A stretch of 64,000 bases of DNA from Hyphomicrobiales bacterium. GTDB taxonomy: Bacteria > Pseudomonadota > Alphaproteobacteria > Rhizobiales > Hyphomicrobiaceae. The notes below the pieces were generated by a model. It was not told the origin of the DNA. It searched no databases and saw only the letters and a program-made list of their open reading frames with translations. The translations under genes were made by a program, and so were the position numbers. Below, one piece after another: positions 1 to 26,670 of the stretch (position 1 is the stretch's first letter; every line of letters begins with the position of its first letter). Location of the stretch: positions 25,205-89,204 of the forward strand of contig JANOHP010000015.1 in the NCBI GenBank assembly GCA_031406575.1, in the 5' to 3' direction.

Positions 1-239
1 GAGATATCGGCGCCCGACACGAACGCTTTGCCACCCGCTCCTGAGACGACCAGGACCCGAATGTCGGGGTCCTTGGCGAACTCGCCGAGCAGCATGATCA
101 GCCGCTCCCACATATCGAGCGAGACGGCGTTGCGCTTGGCCGGATTGTTGAAAATGATCTGCGCCACACCCCCCTCGCGCCGCGCCAGCAACTTTTCTTC
201 GGTCGTGAGGTCAGGCTTGGCTGAGCTGGTCGCAGTCAT
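1..239 (-). CDS. enoyl-CoA hydratase/isomerase (crotonase) family protein, N-terminal 79 codons; gene continues past the left edge
   Basis: My reverse-complement translation from ATG 239-237 gives MTATSSAKPDLTTEEKLLARREGGVAQIIFNNPAKRNAVSLDMWERLIMLLGEFAKDPDIRVLVVSGAGGKAFVSGADI. This is a typical crotonase N-terminus (NxPxxxNA ... GAGxxAFxxGxD). It is absent from the ORF track because there is no stop in the window. Confidence 0.8.
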   Translation of the reverse strand, partial: MTATSSAKPDLTTEEKLLARREGGVAQIIFNNPAKRNAVSLDMWERLIMLLGEFAKDPDIRVLVVSGAGGKAFVSGADI

Positions 240-417
240 TGGCAGCGTCCTCATTGCGGGAAGGGTGATGTTGGGGAATGTGTAGGGGGGAATTGGGGTG
301 GGTGCAATGAGGGGGGTGGGTTCAGGAAAGCCTGTTCCATCGTGCCGCATGTTGCACGATGGGCGACTGTTTCGTTGCAACCGGCGCGGCACGGTCATGA
401 TATCGATGATGCTCACA

Positions 418-1302
418 TCAGCTGCTTGCCTTGTCTGCGGAAATCCGCGCGGCCATGGCGGTGTCAAACGTTTGTTTCATACGGTTGAAATCGGCTTCGC
501 GGCCGGTGAAATGGCGAAACGAATCGACGGCCTGACACACGTTCATGCCGTCGCCCGTGACTACGCGGCAGCCTTTGGCCTGGGCAGCCTTGATGAGTTG
601 GGTCTGGAGTGGGGTGTAGATGATGTCGGCGACCCAATGCGCAGATGACAGGTAGTCCGGAGGCACGGGATTTCCCGGGATGCCCACCATGCCGATTGGT
701 GAGGCGTTGACGATACCTTTGGCTCCGCGAACGGCCGCACCCAAGTCGTCCGTCTGGCGACTGCGCGAGGGACCGAAGTACTTGGCCAAGTCGGCCGCCA
801 AGCTACCGGCTTTCACGGGATCGACATCGTAAATATCGACCCGACCAGCGCCCATATCCATCAGGGCGAAGGCGCACGCACGGCCGGCGCCCCCGGCGCC
901 AACGAGTGCGATTGTCTGGTGCTGCAACGCCTTGACACCGAATGTGGCCTCGAGGCTGCGCCGGAACCCACTGCGATCCGTGTTGTAGCCAGTCGCCCGG
1001 CCGCCCTGTTCGAAGGTGACGGTGTTGACGGCACCGATCTGACGCGCTTCGTCGGAAATCGCATCGAGCAGCGGCATCACCGCCTGCTTCACCGGAAATG
1101 TGACGTTGATGCCGGTGAGCCCCACTTGTCTTACGGCCTCGAAGACGTCCGCGAGGTGGCGCTGCGGGGAAACGTCGAGATCCATCAGGTGGTAATGGCC
1201 GCGCAGGCCGAATGCGCCGAGCGCATCCTCCTGCAGTGTTGGAGCCAACGACTTCAGGATGTTGCCGCCGATGAGGCCGAGCAGATAGGGAGGTTGGTGC
1301 AT
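418..1302 (-). CDS. shikimate/quinate dehydrogenase family protein
   Basis: 294-aa ORF with NVTFPVKQ, GYNTD and the NAD(P) loop LVGAGGAGRA, typical of AroE/YdiB-type enzymes. Confidence 0.8.
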   Translation of the reverse strand: MHQPPYLLGLIGGNILKSLAPTLQEDALGAFGLRGHYHLMDLDVSPQRHLADVFEAVRQVGLTGINVTFPVKQAVMPLLDAISDEARQIGAVNTVTFEQGGRATGYNTDRSGFRRSLEATFGVKALQHQTIALVGAGGAGRACAFALMDMGAGRVDIYDVDPVKAGSLAADLAKYFGPSRSRQTDDLGAAVRGAKGIVNASPIGMVGIPGNPVPPDYLSSAHWVADIIYTPLQTQLIKAAQAKGCRVVTGDGMNVCQAVDSFRHFTGREADFNRMKQTFDTAMAARISADKASS

Positions 1303-3793: not shown

Positions 3794-3984
3794 ATGCAGC
3801 ACGTGGGGCGAACCCCCATGCCGCTCGCGCTTTTAGCGGGCGTGATGGCGGTCCACAAGCATGCGTCGAGCAGAGCTCGGTAACAGTTCCCGCTTGATTG
3901 CGCCCGCACGGGGGGAGCAATGTCGCGACCGAGTCCTCGGTCGATGGCGGCACGGGACTCTCACCTGCGGAATGGCCCTGACCT

Positions 3985-4731
3985 ATGAGCATCAAGTCCA
4001 CCTTCTTCGGCGTCGTGTCCCGCTCGGACCAGCCCAAGCGCGACACGCTGCGCCGCTTGCGGGCACGGTCCAAGCCCGTCGGCAGGCGACAGGAATTACG
4101 GCCGCGGCTCGTGTTGGCGAGCGCCAGTCCGCGCCGCATGATGCTGTTGGCACAAGTGGGTGTGGAGCCCGATGCGCTGCGACCGTCGTCGATTGACGAG
4201 ACGCCCCTGCGCGGTGAGATGCCCCGCAGCCTGGCAATGCGGCTGGCTCGCGCAAAAGCCGAATCGGCACGCGATCTCATTGCCGACGATGCCGAACTGG
4301 CCGAAGCCTACGTGCTGGCGGCCGATACGGTCGTTGCTTCGGGTCGCCGGGATATTTTCGGCAAACCCAACGATGTCGATGAAGCCTTGGCTATGCTTGA
4401 GCGCTTGTCGGGCCGGTCACATCGCGTGCTGACCGGCGTCTGCCTCGTGACGCCCGATGATCGAGTGCGGTTGAAACTCGTCGACACGCGGGTGCGGTTC
4501 AAGCGCTTGTCGCGTGAGGAAAAAGAAGCGTACTTGGCGTCTCGCGAGTGGCGCGGCAAGGCCGGAGGATATGCCATTCAGGGGCTCGCTGGATGCTTCG
4601 TGCAGCGTCTGGTCGGGTCCTACACCAATGTTGTGGGGCTGCCCTTGACCGAAGTCGCCGCGATGCTTGTGGGCGAGGGCTTTCCCATCCATTTCAATTG
4701 GTTGAAGGCTGGCGAAACAGAGGCGGAATAG
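3985..4731 (+). CDS. maf: Maf-like nucleoside triphosphate pyrophosphatase
   Basis: [14 protein letters not shown]...ADTVV...[10 protein letters not shown]...NVVGLPL are Maf motifs. ATG 3985 gives an unusually long basic N-terminal extension. An in-frame GTG at 4111 is an alternative start. Confidence 0.8.
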
Positions 4732-4737
4732 GTCGAC

Positions 4738-4983
4738 GTGATCAAGCTGGTGGAACAACCCGAACCAACGCGCGGCGGCAAATGTCCGGTCTGCCGCAAA
4801 CCCACGGATGCCGAAAACAGGCCATTCTGTTCGCGCCGGTGTGCCGATCTCGACTTGTCGCGTTGGCTCGGCGGCGGCTACGCCATCGCGGGCTCGGTCG
4901 ATTCGGATGAAGACGGCGACGATGCTACGACTCGCCGCGGGCCGGCCGACGGAGCAAGGAGCGCGACCGATGAAGATGAGTGA
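4738..4983 (+). CDS. yacG: DNA gyrase inhibitor YacG (zinc finger)
   Basis: CPVCRKPTDAENRPFCSRRCADLDLSRWLGGGY is the YacG Cys4 zinc-finger motif. GTG start, adjacent to maf as in many proteobacteria. Confidence 0.8.
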   Translation: MIKLVEQPEPTRGGKCPVCRKPTDAENRPFCSRRCADLDLSRWLGGGYAIAGSVDSDEDGDDATTRRGPADGARSATDEDE

Positions 4984-5302
4984 CATTCCTTTCGGCACGA
5001 CCGACTGGGCCAGCGTCGCGCCGACCGAGCATCGGGGTGAAAGCGGTATGGCGACCTGGCGAACCCGCGAATTCGGCGGCATCCGGGTTCGAATGGTGGA
5101 CTATTCGCCGAACTATCTGGCGGATCATTGGTGCCAGAAGGGTCACATCCTTCTGGTCCTCGCCGGCGAACTCGAGACCGAACTCGACGACGGTCGCCGG
5201 GTGGTGCTGAAACCTGGCCAAAGTTATCAAGTCGCCGACGGCGCCGAGCCCCACCGCTCGCGGACCGGACCAGATGGAGCGAGGTTGTTCATTGTGGATT
5301 GA
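4970..5302 (+). CDS. cupin-fold protein (DHCW-motif type)
   Basis: MKMSDIPFGTTDW...YLADHWCQKGHILLVLAGELETELDDGR...GQSYQV. Start chosen at ATG 4970, preceded by GGAGCAAGGAG. It overlaps the yacG end by 14 nt. Confidence 0.6.
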   Translation: MKMSDIPFGTTDWASVAPTEHRGESGMATWRTREFGGIRVRMVDYSPNYLADHWCQKGHILLVLAGELETELDDGRRVVLKPGQSYQVADGAEPHRSRTGPDGARLFIVD

Positions 5303-5477
5303 GGGGGTGAGATGGTGGCGAGGGTAGTTCTTCGACAGTTGCGTTGAGGTCGTCAACCAAAGGGCGCGAAGCTCGACTCCAATCCAGAGGCTTGTGCCCA
5401 AAATTTGCGCACCACAGCACTTGATCCGGCCGGCGTTCTGGCCGACAAGCGGCCAGATTTCGTCAAAAGGACCGACA

Positions 5478-6377
5478 ATGGCAATCCTCGTCGACCGCAA
5501 CACCAAGGTCATCTGCCAGGGCATTACGGGCAAGCAGGGCACGTATCACACGTCGGCTGCGGTCGCCTATGGCACCCAGGTCGTGGGCGGTGTGACGCCG
5601 GGCAAGGGCGGCTCCAAGCATCCCGAGGCGAGCCTGGCCCACTTGCCGATGTTCGATTCGGTGATCGAGGCGAAAGCGGTGACCGGCGCCACAGCGACGT
5701 CGATCTATGTGCCGCCGCCCTTTGCGGCAGACGCCATCCTCGAGGCGATCGACGCCGAGATGCCTCTAATCGTGTGCATCACGGAAGGGGTTCCCGTGAT
5801 GGATATGATCAAGGTCAAGCGGGCGCTTTCGGGATCGAAATCGCGGCTCATCGGGCCGAATTGTCCGGGCGTGCTGACCACGGACGCCTGCAAGATCGGC
5901 ATCATGCCGGGTAACATCTTCAGGCCGGGCGATATCGGGATTTTGTCGCGTTCGGGAACGCTGACGTACGAAGCCGTCAAGCAGACCTCCGACGTCGGGC
6001 TGGGGCAGTCGACAGCGGTCGGCATCGGCGGCGATCCGGTGAAGGGCACCGAGTTCATCGATGTTCTGGAAATGTTTCTCTCTGATCCCGCAACCCGTGC
6101 CATCGTCATGATCGGCGAGATCGGTGGATCGGCCGAGGAAGAGGCGTGCGACTTCATCAAGAGCGAGCGGGCAAAGGGGCGCTCGAAGCCGATGATCGGC
6201 TTCATTGCCGGCTCCACGGCGCCACCGGGCCGGCGCATGGGTCACGCGGGTGCCATCATCTCCGGTGGCAAAGGCAAGGCGGAAGACAAGTTCGAAGCCA
6301 TGCGGTCCGCAGGAATTATGATTTCGCAGAGCCCGGCCGAGTTGGGGTCGACGATGATCAAAGCCTTGAAGGGTTGA
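5478..6377 (+). CDS. sucD: succinyl-CoA synthetase alpha subunit
   Basis: [40 protein letters not shown] and MGHAGAII (phosphohistidine loop). Start at ATG 5478 matches the canonical N-terminus. Confidence 0.92.
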
Positions 6378-16922: not shown

Positions 16923-17009
16923 GGTGAGATGGTGAGTGGTGAGGTCGTGAGTGGTGGGATGGCGAGGTGGTGGAACTGCCACTCACCACTGACCACTCAC
17001 CATCTCACC
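16923..17009. repeat. GTGAGTGG-rich long inverted repeat (intercistronic hairpin), copy 1
   Basis: Left arm GGTGAGATGGTGAGTGGTGAGGTCGTGAGTGG, right arm CCACTCACCACTGACCACTCACCATCTCACC. The outer 18 nt pair perfectly. It lies between the SDR stop (17016) and the MaoC start (16886). A related element is at 24600-24699. Confidence 0.75.
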
Positions 17010-17015
17010 CCCTTC

Positions 17016-21008: not shown

Positions 21009-22559
21009 TCAGGGCAACGGCAGCGTTTCATGCTCGCGGAGTTTTTTTCCCGACTGTGTGTCTACTTCCACGAGGCGCACGCGATAGCCCCAAAGCCGCG
21101 CGACGTGCATCAGCGTGCGGTCGCATTCTTCCTTGTCGAGAAGAATGCCGTCGCGGACGAAGTGCGTGAGCACGAGACGGCGGCTGCCGGCGAGATCGGC
21201 GTCGGTGACTTGAATGTCGGGGTCTTGCTGCCCGACATCGTACTGGCGCGCGAGCATGCGGCGCACTTGTTTGTAGCCCTGGGCATCGTGGATCGCCTCG
21301 ACGCGGACATTGCTGTTTTCGGATTCATCGCGCAGATGAAACATCCGGAAGTCGCGCATCACTTTCGGCGAGAGGAATTGCAGGATGAAACTCTCGTCAC
21401 GAAAGTCGGCCCAGGCCGTTCTCAAAATACCCATGTAATCCGAGTTGCCCGCGAAATCGGGGAACCAAGCGCGGTCTTCGTCCGTCGGCTCCAGGCAGAT
21501 GCGTTTGATGTCGCGCATCATCGCATAACCAAGCGCATAGGGATTGAAGCCGCCAAAGCCGCGATCGTTGAAGCCGGGCTGATAGACGACGGCGGCGTGC
21601 ATGTGCGCGAACTCGAGCATGGAGCCTTCCGTGACGAGCCCCTTCTCGAACATGCGGTTCATGATCTCGTAATGCACGAACGTGGCGCAGCCCTCGTTCA
21701 TCACTTTCGTTTGGCGTTGCGGATAGAAATACTGCGACATGACGCGAACGATCCGAAGCAGTTCGGCCTTCCAATCTTCCAGTTTGGGAGCATTCTTTTC
21801 CAGGAAATAGAGGATATTTTCCTCCGGCAGGCTGAGCGCCTGCTGCTCGGCTCGGCTTTCCTCGCTGACCTCCGAGACCGCTTTCTTGACGCCGGGCTTG
21901 GGAAGCGTGCGGTAAATTTCGTTGAAAATTTCGATCTCGTAGTCTTTGCGGGCCTGTTCGCGCTGACGCTCCTTGGCTGGATCAAAGCGCCGCCGCGGCT
22001 TGGCGTTGCGCGACACACCCTGGTTCATCAGCGCGTGCGCGGCATCGAGCACGGATTCCACGGCACCGACGCCGTAGCGTTCCTCGCAATCGGAAACGTA
22101 GCGTTTGGCGAAGTCGAGATATTCCAAGATGGCGTCGGCCTGGGTCCACTGGCGAAACAGGTAGTTGTTCTTGAAGAAGTGGTTGTGACCCATCGCGGCG
22201 TGCGCCATCACCAAGCACTGCATCGTCATGGAATTTTCTTCCATGATGTAATTGATGCAGGGATCGGAATTGATGACGATCTCGAAGGCCAGAGAGCGCG
22301 CACCCTTGCGATACATCATCTCATCGCGGGCAAAGCGCTTACCGAAGGACCAGTGCCGATACATGAGGGGCATGCCGATCGACGAGTACGCATCGAGCAT
22401 CTGCTCGGCGGTAATCACCTCGATCTGGTTCTTGTAGATGTCGAGGCCCATCTCGCCGACGCCGATCTCCTCGATGGCCTCGTAGGTGCGCCCGATCAGA
22501 TCGAAATTCCATTCCGGCCCGATAAAGAGGGGTTTGTGGTTTGCCCGCGTGGTCGCCAT
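21009..22559 (-). CDS. spoVR: SpoVR/YcgB family protein
   Basis: 516 aa with LFIGPEWNFDLI...YRHWSFGKRF...LAFEIVINSDPC...MAHAAMGHNHFF. Third gene of the prkA module. Confidence 0.88.
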   Translation of the reverse strand: MATTRANHKPLFIGPEWNFDLIGRTYEAIEEIGVGEMGLDIYKNQIEVITAEQMLDAYSSIGMPLMYRHWSFGKRFARDEMMYRKGARSLAFEIVINSDPCINYIMEENSMTMQCLVMAHAAMGHNHFFKNNYLFRQWTQADAILEYLDFAKRYVSDCEERYGVGAVESVLDAAHALMNQGVSRNAKPRRRFDPAKERQREQARKDYEIEIFNEIYRTLPKPGVKKAVSEVSEESRAEQQALSLPEENILYFLEKNAPKLEDWKAELLRIVRVMSQYFYPQRQTKVMNEGCATFVHYEIMNRMFEKGLVTEGSMLEFAHMHAAVVYQPGFNDRGFGGFNPYALGYAMMRDIKRICLEPTDEDRAWFPDFAGNSDYMGILRTAWADFRDESFILQFLSPKVMRDFRMFHLRDESENSNVRVEAIHDAQGYKQVRRMLARQYDVGQQDPDIQVTDADLAGSRRLVLTHFVRDGILLDKEECDRTLMHVARLWGYRVRLVEVDTQSGKKLREHETLPLP

Positions 22560-22576: not shown

Positions 22577-23857
22577 TCAGTTGGTGGCCGAGCTGGAAAA
22601 CAGCTCGTGGAACACCGGGAAGATTTCTCCGGGGTTGGTGACTCGGCGCATGGCGAAATGCCGGTGACGATCAGCCAATTCCTTGTAGCCGTGCCACACG
22701 ATGGTTTCGCCGGGGCCTGAGCGTTCGGACACCTCGATATAGGCGAAATACTGACTGGCGGGGAGGAGATGCTCCTGCACCAACTCGATGCAGCGGCCCA
22801 TGTCGTCGGGGATGTTGTCGCCGTCGGATGCCTGCGCGGCGTAGATGTTCCAATCCTCCGGCGAGTAGCGTTCCTTGACGATGCGGTCCATCTCGTCGAG
22901 CGCGGTGGAGATGACGGTGCCGCCCGTCTCGACGCCGCGAAAGAACGTTTCTTCGTCGACTTCGGCGGCCGTCGAAGTGTGGCGAATGAAGACCAGATCG
23001 ACCTCGCGGTAATGGCGCGAAAGGAAGAGGTGGAGCAACATGAAGAAGCGCTTGGCGAGTTCCTTGAGGGGCTCGGTCATGGAGGCCGAAGCGTCCATCA
23101 GGCAGAACATGACCGCCTGGGTCGACGGCCGCGGCACACGCTCGAAGCGATTGTACTGGAGATCGATCGGGTCGACGTAGGCGATGGATTTTCGCATGCG
23201 CTCCATGCGCGCGAGCTTGGCGCGCAACTCGGCGATCAGCACTTCGTTGGGAATTTTTTCCGCTTCGGCTGCCCGAATCTCTTCTTCGAGCTTGCGGATG
23301 TCCTCTTGCTTGGGCCGCTTCAGCGCGATGCGCCGTGACAGACTTTTGCGCATGGTGCGCACGCGGTTCATTTTTGCGGGCGGGCCATCCGTGGTGTAGC
23401 CGGCGCGCTGCATGACCGGCGTCTTCATGTCCTTCAGCTTGGTTTTGACGAGGTTGGGCAACTTCAAGTCCTCGAAGAAAACGTCGAGGAACTCGTCCTT
23501 CGAGAGCGTGAAAACGAAATCGTCGCTGCCTTCGCCATCGGGGCTGGCTTTGCCACCACCTCCGCCGCCGCCACCGCCGCCCTGTGGTTTTGGAATGAGG
23601 TCGCCCGAGCGGTATTCTTTATTGCCGGGCAAAACCATGTCGCGGTTGCCACCATCGCGACTGGGCGAGAAGGAGGGTTCGCGCACGCTCTTGGAGCGGA
23701 TCGAGATTTTCTCCGAACCCTCGACGTTGGCCACCTTGCGCTTCTTGACGGCGTCGCGCACGGCTTCGCGAATGTCGGCCTTTGCACGGCGCACGAAGCG
23801 CTGGCGATTGCCCAGAGATTTCGATTTCGGATTGAGGCGGCGGTCGACGATGTTCAT
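22577..23857 (-). CDS. yeaH: YeaH/YhbH (DUF444) family protein
   Basis: MNIVDRRLNPKSKSLGNRQRFVRRAKADIREAV..., an internal poly-Gly tract, and a vWA-like C-terminal half. Confidence 0.88.
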   Translation of the reverse strand: MNIVDRRLNPKSKSLGNRQRFVRRAKADIREAVRDAVKKRKVANVEGSEKISIRSKSVREPSFSPSRDGGNRDMVLPGNKEYRSGDLIPKPQGGGGGGGGGGKASPDGEGSDDFVFTLSKDEFLDVFFEDLKLPNLVKTKLKDMKTPVMQRAGYTTDGPPAKMNRVRTMRKSLSRRIALKRPKQEDIRKLEEEIRAAEAEKIPNEVLIAELRAKLARMERMRKSIAYVDPIDLQYNRFERVPRPSTQAVMFCLMDASASMTEPLKELAKRFFMLLHLFLSRHYREVDLVFIRHTSTAAEVDEETFFRGVETGGTVISTALDEMDRIVKERYSPEDWNIYAAQASDGDNIPDDMGRCIELVQEHLLPASQYFAYIEVSERSGPGETIVWHGYKELADRHRHFAMRRVTNPGEIFPVFHELFSSSATN

Positions 23858-24456
23858 TGATTTGAATCCCGATCGGTCTCAGCCGAAGCAAGCGGAATGC
23901 CGCCATAGACGGTCATGAGAGAAAGCGCTGCGGGCGTTCCCGGAATGGCGATGACGTCGTCGGGATTGTCGAGGCGAACGGCATCCCAGGTGCCATCAGC
24001 GCCGCGCGAATAGACCATGACGTCCATGATCGTGGGATCGATGTGCACGATGGTCGTGAGGCTCGGGTGACGGAGATACTCCTGCAGCTTCTCGCTGCGG
24101 TCGAGCTGGCGGGTCGTCGGCGACAGGATCTCGAATGCGGCGACTGGATTGCGGGCTTCGAGCGTGCCGCGCTCTACCGGGGCGCAATCGATCGTCACAT
24201 TCGGACGGCGCACACGCTTGATGTTGGTCCGGACGGCCGTGTCCGCGGTCGTCGGGCGGCACGGCGAGCCGGCAAGCTGAGCGCCAAGCGCCACGATGAC
24301 GTTGACGACGACGGCGTCGTGCTCACCGCGTGCACCCGACATCCCGCGGAGCGGCACGGGCACGCCGTCGACGAGCTCGTAGCGCTCGTCCTGCGAGAGG
24401 TTCCACTCCAGGAACTCGTCGACCGTCATGTCGGTGCTGCGCAGGGGTTCGCCCAT
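23854..24456 (-). CDS. Uma2 (DUF820) family PD-(D/E)xK nuclease-like protein, inserted inside the prkA operon
   Basis: MGEPLRSTDMTVDEFLEWNLSQDERYELVDGVPVPL...RRPNVTIDC...AAFEILSPTTRQLDRSEKLQEYLRHPSLTTIVHIDP matches the Uma2 layout (YELxxG, PD-like, EhlSPst, DxxxKxxxY). Start at ATG 24456. The stop overlaps the yeaH ATG (ATGA). Confidence 0.7.
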   Translation of the reverse strand: MGEPLRSTDMTVDEFLEWNLSQDERYELVDGVPVPLRGMSGARGEHDAVVVNVIVALGAQLAGSPCRPTTADTAVRTNIKRVRRPNVTIDCAPVERGTLEARNPVAAFEILSPTTRQLDRSEKLQEYLRHPSLTTIVHIDPTIMDVMVYSRGADGTWDAVRLDNPDDVIAIPGTPAALSLMTVYGGIPLASAETDRDSNQ

Positions 24457-24590
24457 CAAGTCCTCGACCTCAACTCTAGCCAGCAACTCCGGCGCATCCG
24501 ACCCCCTGAAGGCCTCGCGCGACGCGCGAAGCGCTGGCGGTTGCCGAGGTTCTTGGACTTGGGGTTCAGGCGGCGGTCGACGATGTTCAT
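24456..24590 (-). pseudogene. duplicated, diverged yeaH 5' end forming a 44-codon leader ORF
   Basis: The ATG at 24590 reads MNIVDRRLNPKSKNLGNRQRFARRAR, then goes out of register and stops at TGA 24458-24456, which shares one base with the Uma2 ATG. About 62/78 nt are identical to 23780-23857. Confidence 0.7.
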
Positions 24591-24599
24591 TGGGGCACT

Positions 24600-24699
24600 C
24601 GTGAGTGGTCAGTCGTGAGTGGTGAGTGGTGGGGTCGGTTGACATGGCGCGACAGCCGCAACTGCCGTGCCACTCACCCGTGATCACTCACCACTCACG
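24600..24699. repeat. GTGAGTGG-rich long inverted repeat (intercistronic hairpin), copy 2
   Basis: CGTGAGTGGTCAGTCGTGAGTGGTGAGTGGTGGGG ... GCCACTCACCCGTGATCACTCACCACTCACG, lying between the prkA stop (24706) and the yeaH-relic ATG (24590). The loop shares AACTGCC with copy 1. Confidence 0.7.
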
Positions 24700-24705
24700 C
24701 TGCAC

Positions 24706-26670
24706 TTACCCGGCCTTCTTCACCCGCATGTACCATTCGACGAGACGGCGGACCTGCCGCTTGGTGTAGCCGCGCGAGACCATGCGCTCGACGAAGTCCT
24801 GGTGCTTGCGTTCGGCGTTGCTGTCCTTTTTTGCTCCGAAGCTGATGACGGGTAGAAGATCCTCGACCTGGCTGAACATGCGCCGCTCGATGACGTCGCG
24901 GATCTTCTCGTAGCTCGTCCAATCGGGGTTCTTGCCACCGTTGCGCGCGCGCGCCCGCAGCGAGAACTTGACGACCTCGTAGCGGAAGTCCTTCGGATTG
25001 GCGATGCCGGCGGGCTTTTCGATCTTGGAGAGTTCCTGATCGAGCAGATCGCGACTCATGAGCTGGCCGGTGTCGGGATCCTTGTGGTCGTGATCTTCGA
25101 TCCAGGCATCGGCATAGGCCACGTAGCGATCGAAAAGGTTTTGCCCGTAATCGTTGTAGGACTCGAGGTAGGCCTTCTGGATTTCGTTGCCCACGAACTC
25201 GGCATAACGGGGCGCCAGCTCTTCCTTGATGAACTCGATGTAGCGGGTCTCTTGGTCTTCGGGCATCTGCTCGCGTTTGATCGCCTGTTCGAGCACGAAC
25301 ATCAGATGCACGGGGTCGGCGCCGATCTCGTGGCTGTCGTAATTGTAGGTCTCCGACAGGATCTTGTACGCAAAGCGTGTGGAGGCGCCGTCCATGCCTT
25401 CCGTTACGCCCGCTGCATCTTTGTATTCTTGCATGGTGCGGGCCTGGGGATCGGTATCCTTGAGGCTTTCACCGTCGTAGACGCGCATCTTGGAGTAGAG
25501 GGACGAATTCTCGTGCTCCTTGAGGCGCGACAAGACGGAAAAGTTCGCCAACATTTCGAGCGTGAATGGTGCGCAGGGCGAGCCCGACAGATCGCTCGAG
25601 CGAATGAGCTTGTCGTAAATCTTGCGCTCTTCCGTCACGCGCAGGCAGTAGGGCACCTTGATGACACAGATACGATCGAGGAATGCTTCGTTCGTGCGAT
25701 TGGCGCGGAAGCTCTGCCATTCGCTTTCATTGGAGTGAGCGACGATGATGCCCTGATAGGGCATGGCGCCGACATTTTCCGTGCCGACGTAGGTGCGGTC
25801 CTGCGTCGCCGTCAGCAGCGGATGCAGCATCTTCAGCGGCGCTTTGAACATTTCGACGAATTCCAGCAACCCTTGCGTCGTGCGGTTGAGACCGCCCGAG
25901 TAGGAGTACGCATCGGCGTCGTTCTGGCCGTAATGTTCGAGCTTGCGGATATCGACCTTGCCGACGAGGGCGGAAATGTCCTGGTTGTTCTCGTCACCGG
26001 GCTCCGTCTTTGCGATGCCGATCTGGCGCAGCTTGGACGGGTAGAGCTTGACGACGGTGAACTTCGAGATGTCGCCGCCGAATTCGTCCAAACGCTTGAC
26101 GGCCCACGGTGAAATGAAGCCGGTGAGCTTGGAGGCCGGAATGGCGTACTTTTCCTCGAGAGCCTTGCCCATGGTTTCGGGGTCGAACAGGCCGAGGGGG
26201 CTTTCGAAAATGGGGCTCGTCTCGTCACCGGCGCGCAGGACGTAGATGGGCAGCTTTTCCATCAAATCCTTGAGGCGTTCGGCCAGTGAGGATTTGCCGC
26301 CGCCAACAGGGCCGAGAAGGTAGAGGATCTGTTTGCGCTCTTCCAGCCCCTGAGCCGCATGCCGGAAGTAGCCGACAATGCGCTCGATGGTTTCTTCCAA
26401 GCCGAAGAAATCATGGAAGGCTGGATAGACTTTGATCGTGCGGTTCATGAAAATCCGCCCGAACCGCTGGTCGTCGGCCGTGTTGACGAGTTGTGGCTCG
26501 CCGATGGACGCGAGCATGCGTTCTGACGCCGTCGCGTACATCGTGGGATCTTTTTTGCACCCCTCGAGGTAATCGCGGATCGACATCACGACTTGCTTCT
26601 GCCGGTCGTATGCCTGAGTGTAGAGATCGAAAATCTCGCTGCGGGATGCCGTTGTGGTGGCCATGGTCAT
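24706..26670 (-). CDS. prkA: PrkA/YeaG family serine protein kinase
   Basis: 654 aa with Walker A LLGPVGGGKSSL and PrkA AAA plus C-terminal domains. Confidence 0.9.
   Translation of the reverse strand: MTMATTTASRSEIFDLYTQAYDRQKQVVMSIRDYLEGCKKDPTMYATASERMLASIGEPQLVNTADDQRFGRIFMNRTIKVYPAFHDFFGLEETIERIVGYFRHAAQGLEERKQILYLLGPVGGGKSSLAERLKDLMEKLPIYVLRAGDETSPIFESPLGLFDPETMGKALEEKYAIPASKLTGFISPWAVKRLDEFGGDISKFTVVKLYPSKLRQIGIAKTEPGDENNQDISALVGKVDIRKLEHYGQNDADAYSYSGGLNRTTQGLLEFVEMFKAPLKMLHPLLTATQDRTYVGTENVGAMPYQGIIVAHSNESEWQSFRANRTNEAFLDRICVIKVPYCLRVTEERKIYDKLIRSSDLSGSPCAPFTLEMLANFSVLSRLKEHENSSLYSKMRVYDGESLKDTDPQARTMQEYKDAAGVTEGMDGASTRFAYKILSETYNYDSHEIGADPVHLMFVLEQAIKREQMPEDQETRYIEFIKEELAPRYAEFVGNEIQKAYLESYNDYGQNLFDRYVAYADAWIEDHDHKDPDTGQLMSRDLLDQELSKIEKPAGIANPKDFRYEVVKFSLRARARNGGKNPDWTSYEKIRDVIERRMFSQVEDLLPVISFGAKKDSNAERKHQDFVERMVSRGYTKRQVRRLVEWYMRVKKAG

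Follow-up and report, generated by a model that had tools for sequence, protein, structure and literature searches.

A recurrent, apparently exchangeable Uma2-family cassette within the prkA-yeaH-spoVR operon of Hyphomicrobiaceae

How does an unrelated gene come to lie inside a conserved three-gene stress operon, and is it a component of that operon or a passenger in it? The question arises from a 64,000-nucleotide stretch of contig JANOHP010000015.1 (the window) from a soil Hyphomicrobiaceae bacterium, in which a Uma2-family gene of 200 codons separates prkA from yeaH. The PrkA-YeaH-SpoVR module (YeaG-YeaH-YcgB) is associated with stress and sporulation, and its three families are contiguous, in the same order and on one strand, in 80 related GTDB loci. 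The window has the same families, order and strand, but differs by a fourth, unrelated gene that interrupts the module between its first two members. Window features are on the minus strand unless stated, and "L" numbers denote related loci or contigs from Hyphomicrobiaceae genomes, metagenomes and other Hyphomicrobiales. An initial annotation had described the Uma2 gene as a singular insert, bounded upstream by a diverged duplicate of the yeaH 5' end that we call the relic. Pfam searches confirmed the coordinates and module order that it gave for prkA, yeaH and spoVR, and the profile search that it proposed assigned the 200-aa open reading frame (ORF) at 23854-24456 to Uma2 (PF05685; E 7.4e-20; 71.6 bits, the cut-off being 27; aligned over positions 1-168 of the 172-position profile). 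The order prkA, relic, Uma2, yeaH is repeated in seven further, independent contigs of this species (L081-L087, from NCBI, ENA and Logan assemblies), so the arrangement is not an assembly artefact.

The insert is not singular: a clade of Uma2 genes fills the same slot in at least ten lineages. We examined contigs carrying nine distinct Uma2 alleles, together with two more reached by other routes, and ten of these alleles, 56-100% identical to that of the window, lie between prkA and yeaH in Hyphomicrobiaceae genomes and metagenomes (Table 1). The L177 allele (62%) is the only one located elsewhere, between ilvD and apbA. More distant Uma2 homologs (53% identity or less) had no prkA or yeaH nearby, and a metagenome scan with the Uma2 alignment returned mostly distant homologs, with only L092 belonging to the clade among the matches listed.

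Occupation of the slot is patchy. None of the 80 best GTDB yeaH loci carries Uma2 there, and aligning the loci of relatives, as the initial annotation had suggested, revealed a clean empty site in the nearest relative, L182 (PrkA 98%, YeaH 96% and SpoVR 93% identical), where prkA is followed by a 113-nt hairpin and then yeaH. The slot is empty in L182 and in 37 other family-level loci. Among the closer relatives, L185 (YeaH 87%) and L001 (YeaH 84%) have empty sites, and L183 (YeaH 89%), L088 and L172 (PrkA 91-92% for both of the latter) have occupied ones; many relatives carry an ORF at this position with no duplicated yeaH start, but not uniformly.

In a neighbour-joining tree of PrkA, YeaH and SpoVR, occupied loci are interspersed with empty ones at four or more separate positions, and L172 and L174 are 79% identical in Uma2 at a YeaH identity of only 68%. 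L179 and L180 encode identical PrkA proteins from prkA genes that are ~96% identical in DNA. Their identity falls at the prkA stop codon, with Uma2 genes 60-78% identical in DNA (68% in protein, pS 0.62) and an unrelated gene after Uma2, and climbs back to 91-93% precisely at the start codon of yeaH (gap regions compared: L179 4969-5964 and L180 4993-5989). Presence or absence at one fixed site among close relatives and a host-discordant phylogeny were both observed. Taken with the L179/L180 identity pattern, they lead us to conclude that the prkA-yeaH interval behaves like a cassette that can be exchanged between its two conserved flanking genes.

Other loci carry other genes in the same place, including a YefM-YoeB toxin-antitoxin pair (Table 1), and the prkA-yeaH gap is a variable cargo slot in Hyphomicrobiaceae and other Hyphomicrobiales lineages. 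No conserved small partner gene, of the kind that marks a type II toxin-antitoxin pair, was found beside Uma2; its neighbours differ at every locus.

What kind of protein occupies the slot? The window protein shares both sequence and fold membership with the Uma2/COG4636 family. An AlphaFold (AF2) model built with 31 homologs in the alignment reached a pLDDT of 84, and Foldseek matched it best to 9y1l (E 7e-8, TM 0.74), followed by 6okh and 3ijm, predicting a restriction-endonuclease-like (PD-(D/E)XK) fold. The solved structures of Uma2/DUF820/COG4636 proteins include TT1808 (1wdj), 3ot2, 9y1l and 6okh. A sequence search of solved structures with the single protein gave no match, and a profile search reached 9y1l weakly. 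Across the 31 aligned homologs ~40 positions are invariant (367 homologs were found at E <= 1e-5), and Uma2 alleles are under purifying selection, with dN/dS of 0.10-0.19 between alleles.

Residues E27, E100, E109, S112/P113 and K123 are conserved in the family, and E27, E100, E109 and K123 are retained in the window copy. Position 86, which aligns to the PD motif of 9y1l, is Asp in 119 of 120 homologs (RRP-D-VTIEC) and Asn in the window lineage, including all eight sampled sequences of the species. The window copy lacks an intact PD...E catalytic motif (D86N) and, because the Asp of the PD motif is replaced, is probably catalytically impaired and disarmed, and may be nuclease-dead.

Previous work described Uma2/COG4636 proteins as predicted PD-(D/E)XK endonucleases that have undergone multiple horizontal transfers (PMC3424549), and a second paper regards the family as a likely "solo toxin" (PMC2701414); our literature search found no member with demonstrated nuclease activity. 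The expansions described in that literature, in cyanobacteria and Thermus, form cassettes of paralogs, in contrast to the single-copy clade in one operon slot seen here. A scan with PADLOC defence models matched the window protein to four PDC-S03 models (E 6.8e-14 to 1.3e-6), PDC-S03 being only a candidate system. The other operon genes had no convincing match in that scan, and the setting is that of a housekeeping stress operon.

Two further observations concern this reading frame. At window position 23862 the window has A (Uma2 Asn199) and the seven other conspecific contigs have G (Asp199), the sole Uma2 difference within the species. The frame is also open for 277 codons (23854-24687), as far back as a GTG immediately beyond the end of prkA, and covers the hairpin and relic in another frame; we rejected it as an extended Uma2, all homologs starting at the ATG at 24456, and it is probably a high-GC artefact.

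Is Uma2 a component of the stress system? It could be an old accessory subunit of PrkA-YeaH-SpoVR, vertically inherited, fast-evolving and repeatedly lost, with the relic as an incidental scar. Such a role would fit a position and strand kept across hosts with only 64-69% YeaH identity, overlaps with the yeaH start that recur in the window, L174, L183 and L088, and the purifying selection and invariant positions noted above. Yet the close relatives L182, L185 and L001 live without Uma2, L179 and L180 combine near-identical flanks with 68% identical Uma2 proteins and unrelated neighbouring cargo, the same slot accepts unrelated genes including a toxin-antitoxin pair, and the window lineage has lost the catalytic Asp with its operon genes still conserved. 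The initial annotation knew of no description of a nuclease-fold gene in this operon, and a search of the available papers found none naming Uma2 together with PrkA, YeaG or DUF444. We consider a subunit role doubtful. Given its description as a solo toxin, the PDC-S03 match, the toxin-antitoxin genes that the slot holds elsewhere, the rapid turnover of alleles and the probably disarmed window copy, Uma2 is most likely a selfish or defence-type passenger.

How did the cassette enter the operon of the window species? The relic provides a record. As the initial annotation had counted, 24513-24590 and 23780-23857 are identical at 62 of 78 nt and differ at 14 codons, 11 of them synonymously and three non-synonymously (N14S, A22V and R26K). 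Allowing a 1-nt deletion, the repeat extends by ~4 nt, to 24509-24590 versus 23776-23857 (78-82 nt). Local alignment of the prkA-Uma2 interval with the yeaH 5' end scored 98, against a mean of 23.8 and a maximum of 37 in 300 shuffles, and the relic alone still matches DUF444 (E 7e-4).

By the Nei-Gojobori method, 12 of ~19 synonymous and four of ~59 non-synonymous sites differ over the 78 nt (pS 0.64, pN 0.068, dN/dS 0.05). Since the copies diverged under purifying selection, they evidently descend from two different functional yeaH alleles and not from an in-place duplication, in agreement with the initial annotation. Tandem duplication in place followed by neutral divergence is a familiar source of direct repeats, through slippage or unequal crossing-over, but duplication and drift would have given many more amino-acid changes than the few seen against so many synonymous ones. 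Metagenome assemblies can likewise be chimeric, and a join of two strains might place two alleles side by side, but eight assemblies, made independently and set apart by single-nucleotide polymorphisms (SNPs) of their own, contain this structure. We find an origin by tandem duplication or chimerism very hard to credit.

Within the window species the relic is clearly unconstrained and decaying. L082 has five SNPs in the 78-nt relic, four of them non-synonymous (V4A, R7H, N14S and R24S), as compared to one in the 603 nt of Uma2 and six in the 1281 nt of yeaH, and L081 has two relic SNPs, which make up a P10S double change. The 44-codon relic ORF nonetheless keeps its frame in all eight sampled sequences. 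Local alignment found no significant relic at the other Uma2-occupied loci, making the relic unique to the window species; a candidate hidden relic in L183, GCCAAGGCGAC, was rejected, its similarity being at chance level. Searching the yeaH 5' ends of ~50 loci for a donor lineage, as the initial annotation had proposed, identified none, with a best match of 69/78 nt in L017. Asn14, shared by the relic and L017, was discarded as a donor link: L082 has AGC at this codon, so Asn14 is recent. Downstream of the relic, the leader at 24457-24508 carries no SNPs within the species and is presumed to be donor sequence from upstream of Uma2; aligned locally with the sequence preceding Uma2 at six loci, these 52-57 nt scored no higher than shuffled sequence.

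Which of the two yeaH starts is resident? Upstream of the relic, the prkA-relic interval folds into a hairpin of -64.8 kcal/mol (z -5.2; 0 of 200 shuffles as stable in an RNA fold). A search of Rfam over the region matched no family, giving only chance matches to miRNA hairpins. A hairpin of the same heptamer type lies at 16923-17011, and the GTGAGTG-type motif occurs eight times in the window, compared with 0.4 expected. The analogous prkA-yeaH hairpins of L182, L183, L001, L014, L017, L018 and L032 are built from other heptamers. Because the GTGAGTG family recurs at 16923-17011 and relatives use other heptamers, the hairpin looks like a genome-specific repeat, similar to repetitive extragenic palindromic (REP) elements, that is native to the window genome. 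As a separate observation, the L174 gap also contains a heptamer hairpin; these hairpins are long and imperfect, and their tandem heptamer differs from lineage to lineage, often with CGACTG in the 3' arm.

Codon usage at Ser14 adds a second criterion. The relic codon is AGC in L082 and a mutated form, AAC, in the window; the AGY type is found in 33 of 38 empty loci, L182 among them. Intact yeaH has TCT. TCN codons mark seven of nine occupied and four of 38 empty loci (Fisher p 1.6e-4, a statistic that ignores kinship). Synonymous distance to L182 is 0.32 for the relic and 0.48 for the intact copy, and L182 is the locus closest to the relic by this measure. Along intact yeaH, mismatches to L182 number 8/30 nt in codons 8-17 and 11/129 nt in codons 18-60. 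The result is a mosaic, with small counts, in which codons 8-17 are L182-like in the relic and unlike L182 in the intact copy, whose later codons are again L182-like.

The initial annotation had taken the upstream copy as the foreign piece. The native hairpin, the AGY-type Ser14 and the small synonymous distance to L182 point the other way: the relic side is probably resident, and Uma2 with the first ~17 codons of intact yeaH was probably imported.

We therefore propose, from sequence comparison, that the Uma2 clade is a locus-locked, exchangeable cassette of the Hyphomicrobiaceae prkA-yeaH-spoVR operon that would move between lineages by recombination through the conserved prkA 3' end and yeaH 5' end. 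The ancestor of the window species would have had an empty site of prkA, REP-like hairpin and yeaH, as in L182. Incoming DNA would have carried a leader of ~52 nt, followed by Uma2 and by a foreign yeaH as far as about nt 50-64. One crossover may have fallen within the near-invariant block GGCAAYCGCCAGCGCTTCG (yeaH nt 46-64) and the other joint at yeaH nt ~82. Such a layout puts the left joint downstream of the right joint in resident coordinates, and ~80 nt of yeaH would thereby have been duplicated, either by a single crossover with a circularised fragment (Campbell-type) or by an equivalent exchange between sister chromosomes. The upstream yeaH copy would then have lost its function and begun to decay, leaving the downstream copy as an intact donor/resident hybrid, and Uma2 would be a passenger, either selfish or of defence type, occupying a permissive slot induced by stress, and would be disarmed in the window species. 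We give this history as a whole, with a resident relic, duplicative integration and a passenger role, a probability of roughly 0.6. Campbell-type capture, the geometry put forward in the initial annotation, fits the data best, with a direct repeat of 78-82 nt on both sides of the insert; that fit falls short of proof.

The opposite polarity deserves consideration. Uma2 may have been inherited vertically in the window lineage, as in L183, L088 and L172, and the sequence preceding it replaced by a linear fragment from an empty-site relative (the prkA 3' end, hairpin and yeaH nt 1-82), making the relic foreign. One joint would be a homologous crossover in prkA and the second an illegitimate one, ~52 nt before Uma2, as in homology-facilitated illegitimate recombination. 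Topologically this is simpler, requiring neither a circle nor a duplication step. The next-closest occupied loci (L183, L088 and L172) share the TCN Ser14 codon with the intact copy, and a relic nearest to the empty-site L182 is what an L182-like donor fragment would leave. Against it, the relic is joined to a hairpin whose family recurs in the same genome and differs from those of L182, L183 and L001, no stretch of the prkA 3' end is unusually similar to any of the lineages sampled, and the intact copy is unusually diverged from L182 in codons 8-17 but not in codons 18-60. Together these make the reversed order of events unlikely.

Several points also weigh against our proposed history. Neither the relic nor the 52-nt leader has an identified donor lineage. 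Over codons 2-17, the relic and the intact copy differ from L182 at four and seven synonymous positions, which is not significant alone, and the Ser14 association was computed ignoring kinship. A sliding-window comparison of prkA, yeaH and spoVR with nine relatives gave no recombination breakpoints, and no recombination tract was seen in prkA or the rest of yeaH; the nearest of these relatives are only ~85% identical in DNA, with synonymous sites near saturation. On distances alone, Uma2 may have been inherited vertically in the window's own clade and precisely lost several times. Lastly, a single case documents the Campbell-type route: relics are missing from the other occupied loci, so the usual route of the cassette is probably two homologous crossovers, in prkA and in yeaH.

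How is the inserted gene translated? The overlaps are exactly as first annotated. The relic ORF ends in a TGA (24458-24456) whose last base is the first of the Uma2 ATG (24456-24454), giving TGATG, and the Uma2 stop (TGA) and yeaH start overlap as ATGA (23854-23857), an overlap also seen in L174 and L183. A Shine-Dalgarno sequence of its own, GAGG at -9 to -6, precedes Uma2, five bases upstream of the ATG. The relic ATG is preceded by a weak one, only GAG at -11 to -9, the relic lacking the GGAG-bearing segment found upstream of yeaH in L182 and L001, and intact yeaH has only a weak GGGA at -13. The initial annotation proposed that the insert uses the native yeaH translation start and hands ribosomes back to yeaH. 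The first part is doubtful, because the relic lacks the GGAG segment and Uma2 has its own GAGG. The second is plausible, with the yeaH ATG overlapping the Uma2 stop and the overlap recurring in two other loci. A crude scan of the minus strand between prkA and spoVR found no promoter-like or terminator-like site.

The relic invites comparison with Campbell-type and homology-facilitated illegitimate integration scars, in which a direct repeat flanks the insert and the repeats are hybrids of resident and incoming sequence. The window shares the direct repeat on both sides. It differs in that the homology is only ~80 nt of the 5' end of a chromosomal gene, the circle is inferred, and there is no integrase, att site or plasmid backbone. 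The slot likewise resembles flexible islets with defence or toxin-antitoxin cargo in its conserved flanks and variable content, including YefM-YoeB, but it lies inside an operon, on the coding strand and with start/stop overlaps, and is not a defence island.

A further comparison is with free-standing homing genes, such as seg and mob of phage T4, and with the PD-(D/E)XK homing enzyme I-Ssp6803I. The likeness consists of a gene wedged between conserved genes, patchy and host-discordant distribution, apparently linked flank polymorphisms and occasional inactivated copies; here the host is a chromosome and not a phage, and homologous recombination in the flanks suffices to explain the pattern. 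Uma2 could accordingly be imagined as an endonuclease that cuts empty prkA-yeaH alleles near the yeaH 5' end, with repair copying Uma2 in and synonymous recoding protecting occupied alleles. The linkage of Ser14 codon type to Uma2 presence, presence or absence at one site among close relatives, a phylogeny discordant with that of the hosts and a catalytically degenerate copy in one lineage would all be expected stages of such a cycle. Simple co-transfer explains the Ser14 linkage equally well, however, and two of nine occupied loci are AGY and four of 38 empty loci TCN. Other genes stand between Uma2 and yeaH in L176, L179 and L180, and we know of no Uma2-family protein that is site-specific or homing. 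We regard homing as distinctly improbable. A broader form, in which the clade propagates itself either by cutting empty alleles or by a circle that excises and re-integrates through the yeaH 5' repeats, with the recoded yeaH start copied in alongside Uma2 and the window at a post-invasion stage marked by scar and D86N, seems improbable to us. If true, it would be the first assigned biology for the Uma2 family, a chromosomal homing system targeting a stress operon.

The main new fact is the recurrent Uma2 arrangement in the PrkA operon, accompanied by an unusually legible integration scar: the four-gene operon variant is new, is built from known parts and changes no major concept. Structures have been solved for the large Uma2/COG4636 family, which has no known function, and here one of its clades has a fixed address. 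Natural presence/absence pairs (window versus L182; L183 versus L185), together with the active-site variant, make Uma2 assayable. The cargo-slot behaviour of the prkA-yeaH junction matters for reading the structure of PrkA operons and indicates how selfish or defence genes may obtain stress-induced expression. The relic itself would be a rare physical record of a cassette entering an operon via ~80 nt of conserved coding sequence.

Table 1. Features of the window, gene order at the Uma2-occupied prkA-yeaH slots, and other cargo of the slot. Where two identities are given for one Uma2, the lower is from global alignment and the higher from tblastn.
Locus	Feature or gene order	Position	Strand	Uma2 identity to window	Evidence or remark
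window	prkA, 654 aa; operon gene 1, left conserved flank of slot	24706..26670	-		Pfam AAA_PrkA PF08298 E 9e-175; PrkA PF06798 E 2.5e-71
window	prkA-yeaH intergenic region with long imperfect GTGAGTG-heptamer hairpin	24591..24705	-		arms ~24596-24629 and 24670-24699
window	relic of yeaH 5' end, codons 1-26	24509..24590	-		62/78 nt identity; dN/dS 0.05; alignment score 98
window	relic ORF, 44 codons: yeaH start, 26 yeaH codons, 18 out-of-frame codons	24456..24590	-		TGA overlaps Uma2 ATG
window	spacer/leader between relic and Uma2	24457..24508	-		carries Uma2 Shine-Dalgarno GAGG
window	Uma2 gene, 200 aa; apparent exchangeable cassette	23854..24456	-		PF05685 (COG4636); between prkA and yeaH
window	Uma2 codon 86, AAT (Asn)	24199..24201	-		family has Asp of PD motif here
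window	first ~17 codons of intact yeaH, imported-looking patch	23807..23857	-		divergence from L182; Ser14 TCT
window	yeaH (DUF444), 426 aa; right conserved flank of slot	22577..23857	-		Pfam E 2.7e-162; YeaH 96% to L182
window	spoVR/ycgB, 516 aa; last module gene	21009..22559	-		Pfam SpoVR E 3e-159; SpoVR_C E 1e-21
window	prkA, hairpin, relic, Uma2, ATGA, yeaH			100%	
L088	prkA, 127-aa membrane ORF, Uma2			74%	
L172	prkA, two ORFs, Uma2			72%	
L174	prkA, hairpin, Uma2, ATGA, yeaH			69-72%	
L176	Uma2 16 nt after prkA			61-67%	
L179	Uma2, 97-aa ORF, yeaH			64%	
L180	Uma2, DUF4440, yeaH			60%	
L181	prkA, Uma2, 42 nt, yeaH			56-61%	
L092	Uma2 15 nt after prkA			65-68%	
L183	ATGA overlap with yeaH			68%	
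L019	YefM-YoeB toxin-antitoxin pair in prkA-yeaH gap	238-870			
L020	Phd antitoxin and DJ-1/PfpI in prkA-yeaH gap	4586-6000			
L058	cupin in prkA-yeaH gap	5484-5997			
L021	small membrane ORFs in prkA-yeaH gap	5653-6000			also L088
L180	DUF4440 in prkA-yeaH gap	5599-5985			
L172	HisKA-like and aspartyl-protease-like ORFs in prkA-yeaH gap	3933-5000			

Three minor observations stand apart from the window itself. The prkA gene of the metagenome-assembled genome at L050 (4010-5963) aligns as five overlapping pieces, suggesting frameshifts that reflect either a pseudogene or long-read assembly errors. The L177 gene (5001-5594), a paralog in the L088 genome, is wedged between ilvD and apbA with gaps of 9 nt and 25 nt; these Uma2 genes may tend to insert tightly between conserved genes that share a strand. 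In one clade with no Uma2 in the slot, prkA is preceded, at a distance of 1-2.4 kb and on the same strand, by a distant Uma2 homolog with 29-32% identity (L006 2223-2786, L007 2200-2763, L009 2328-2891 and L011 1018-1584), which may be coincidence or a second association of Uma2 with prkA.

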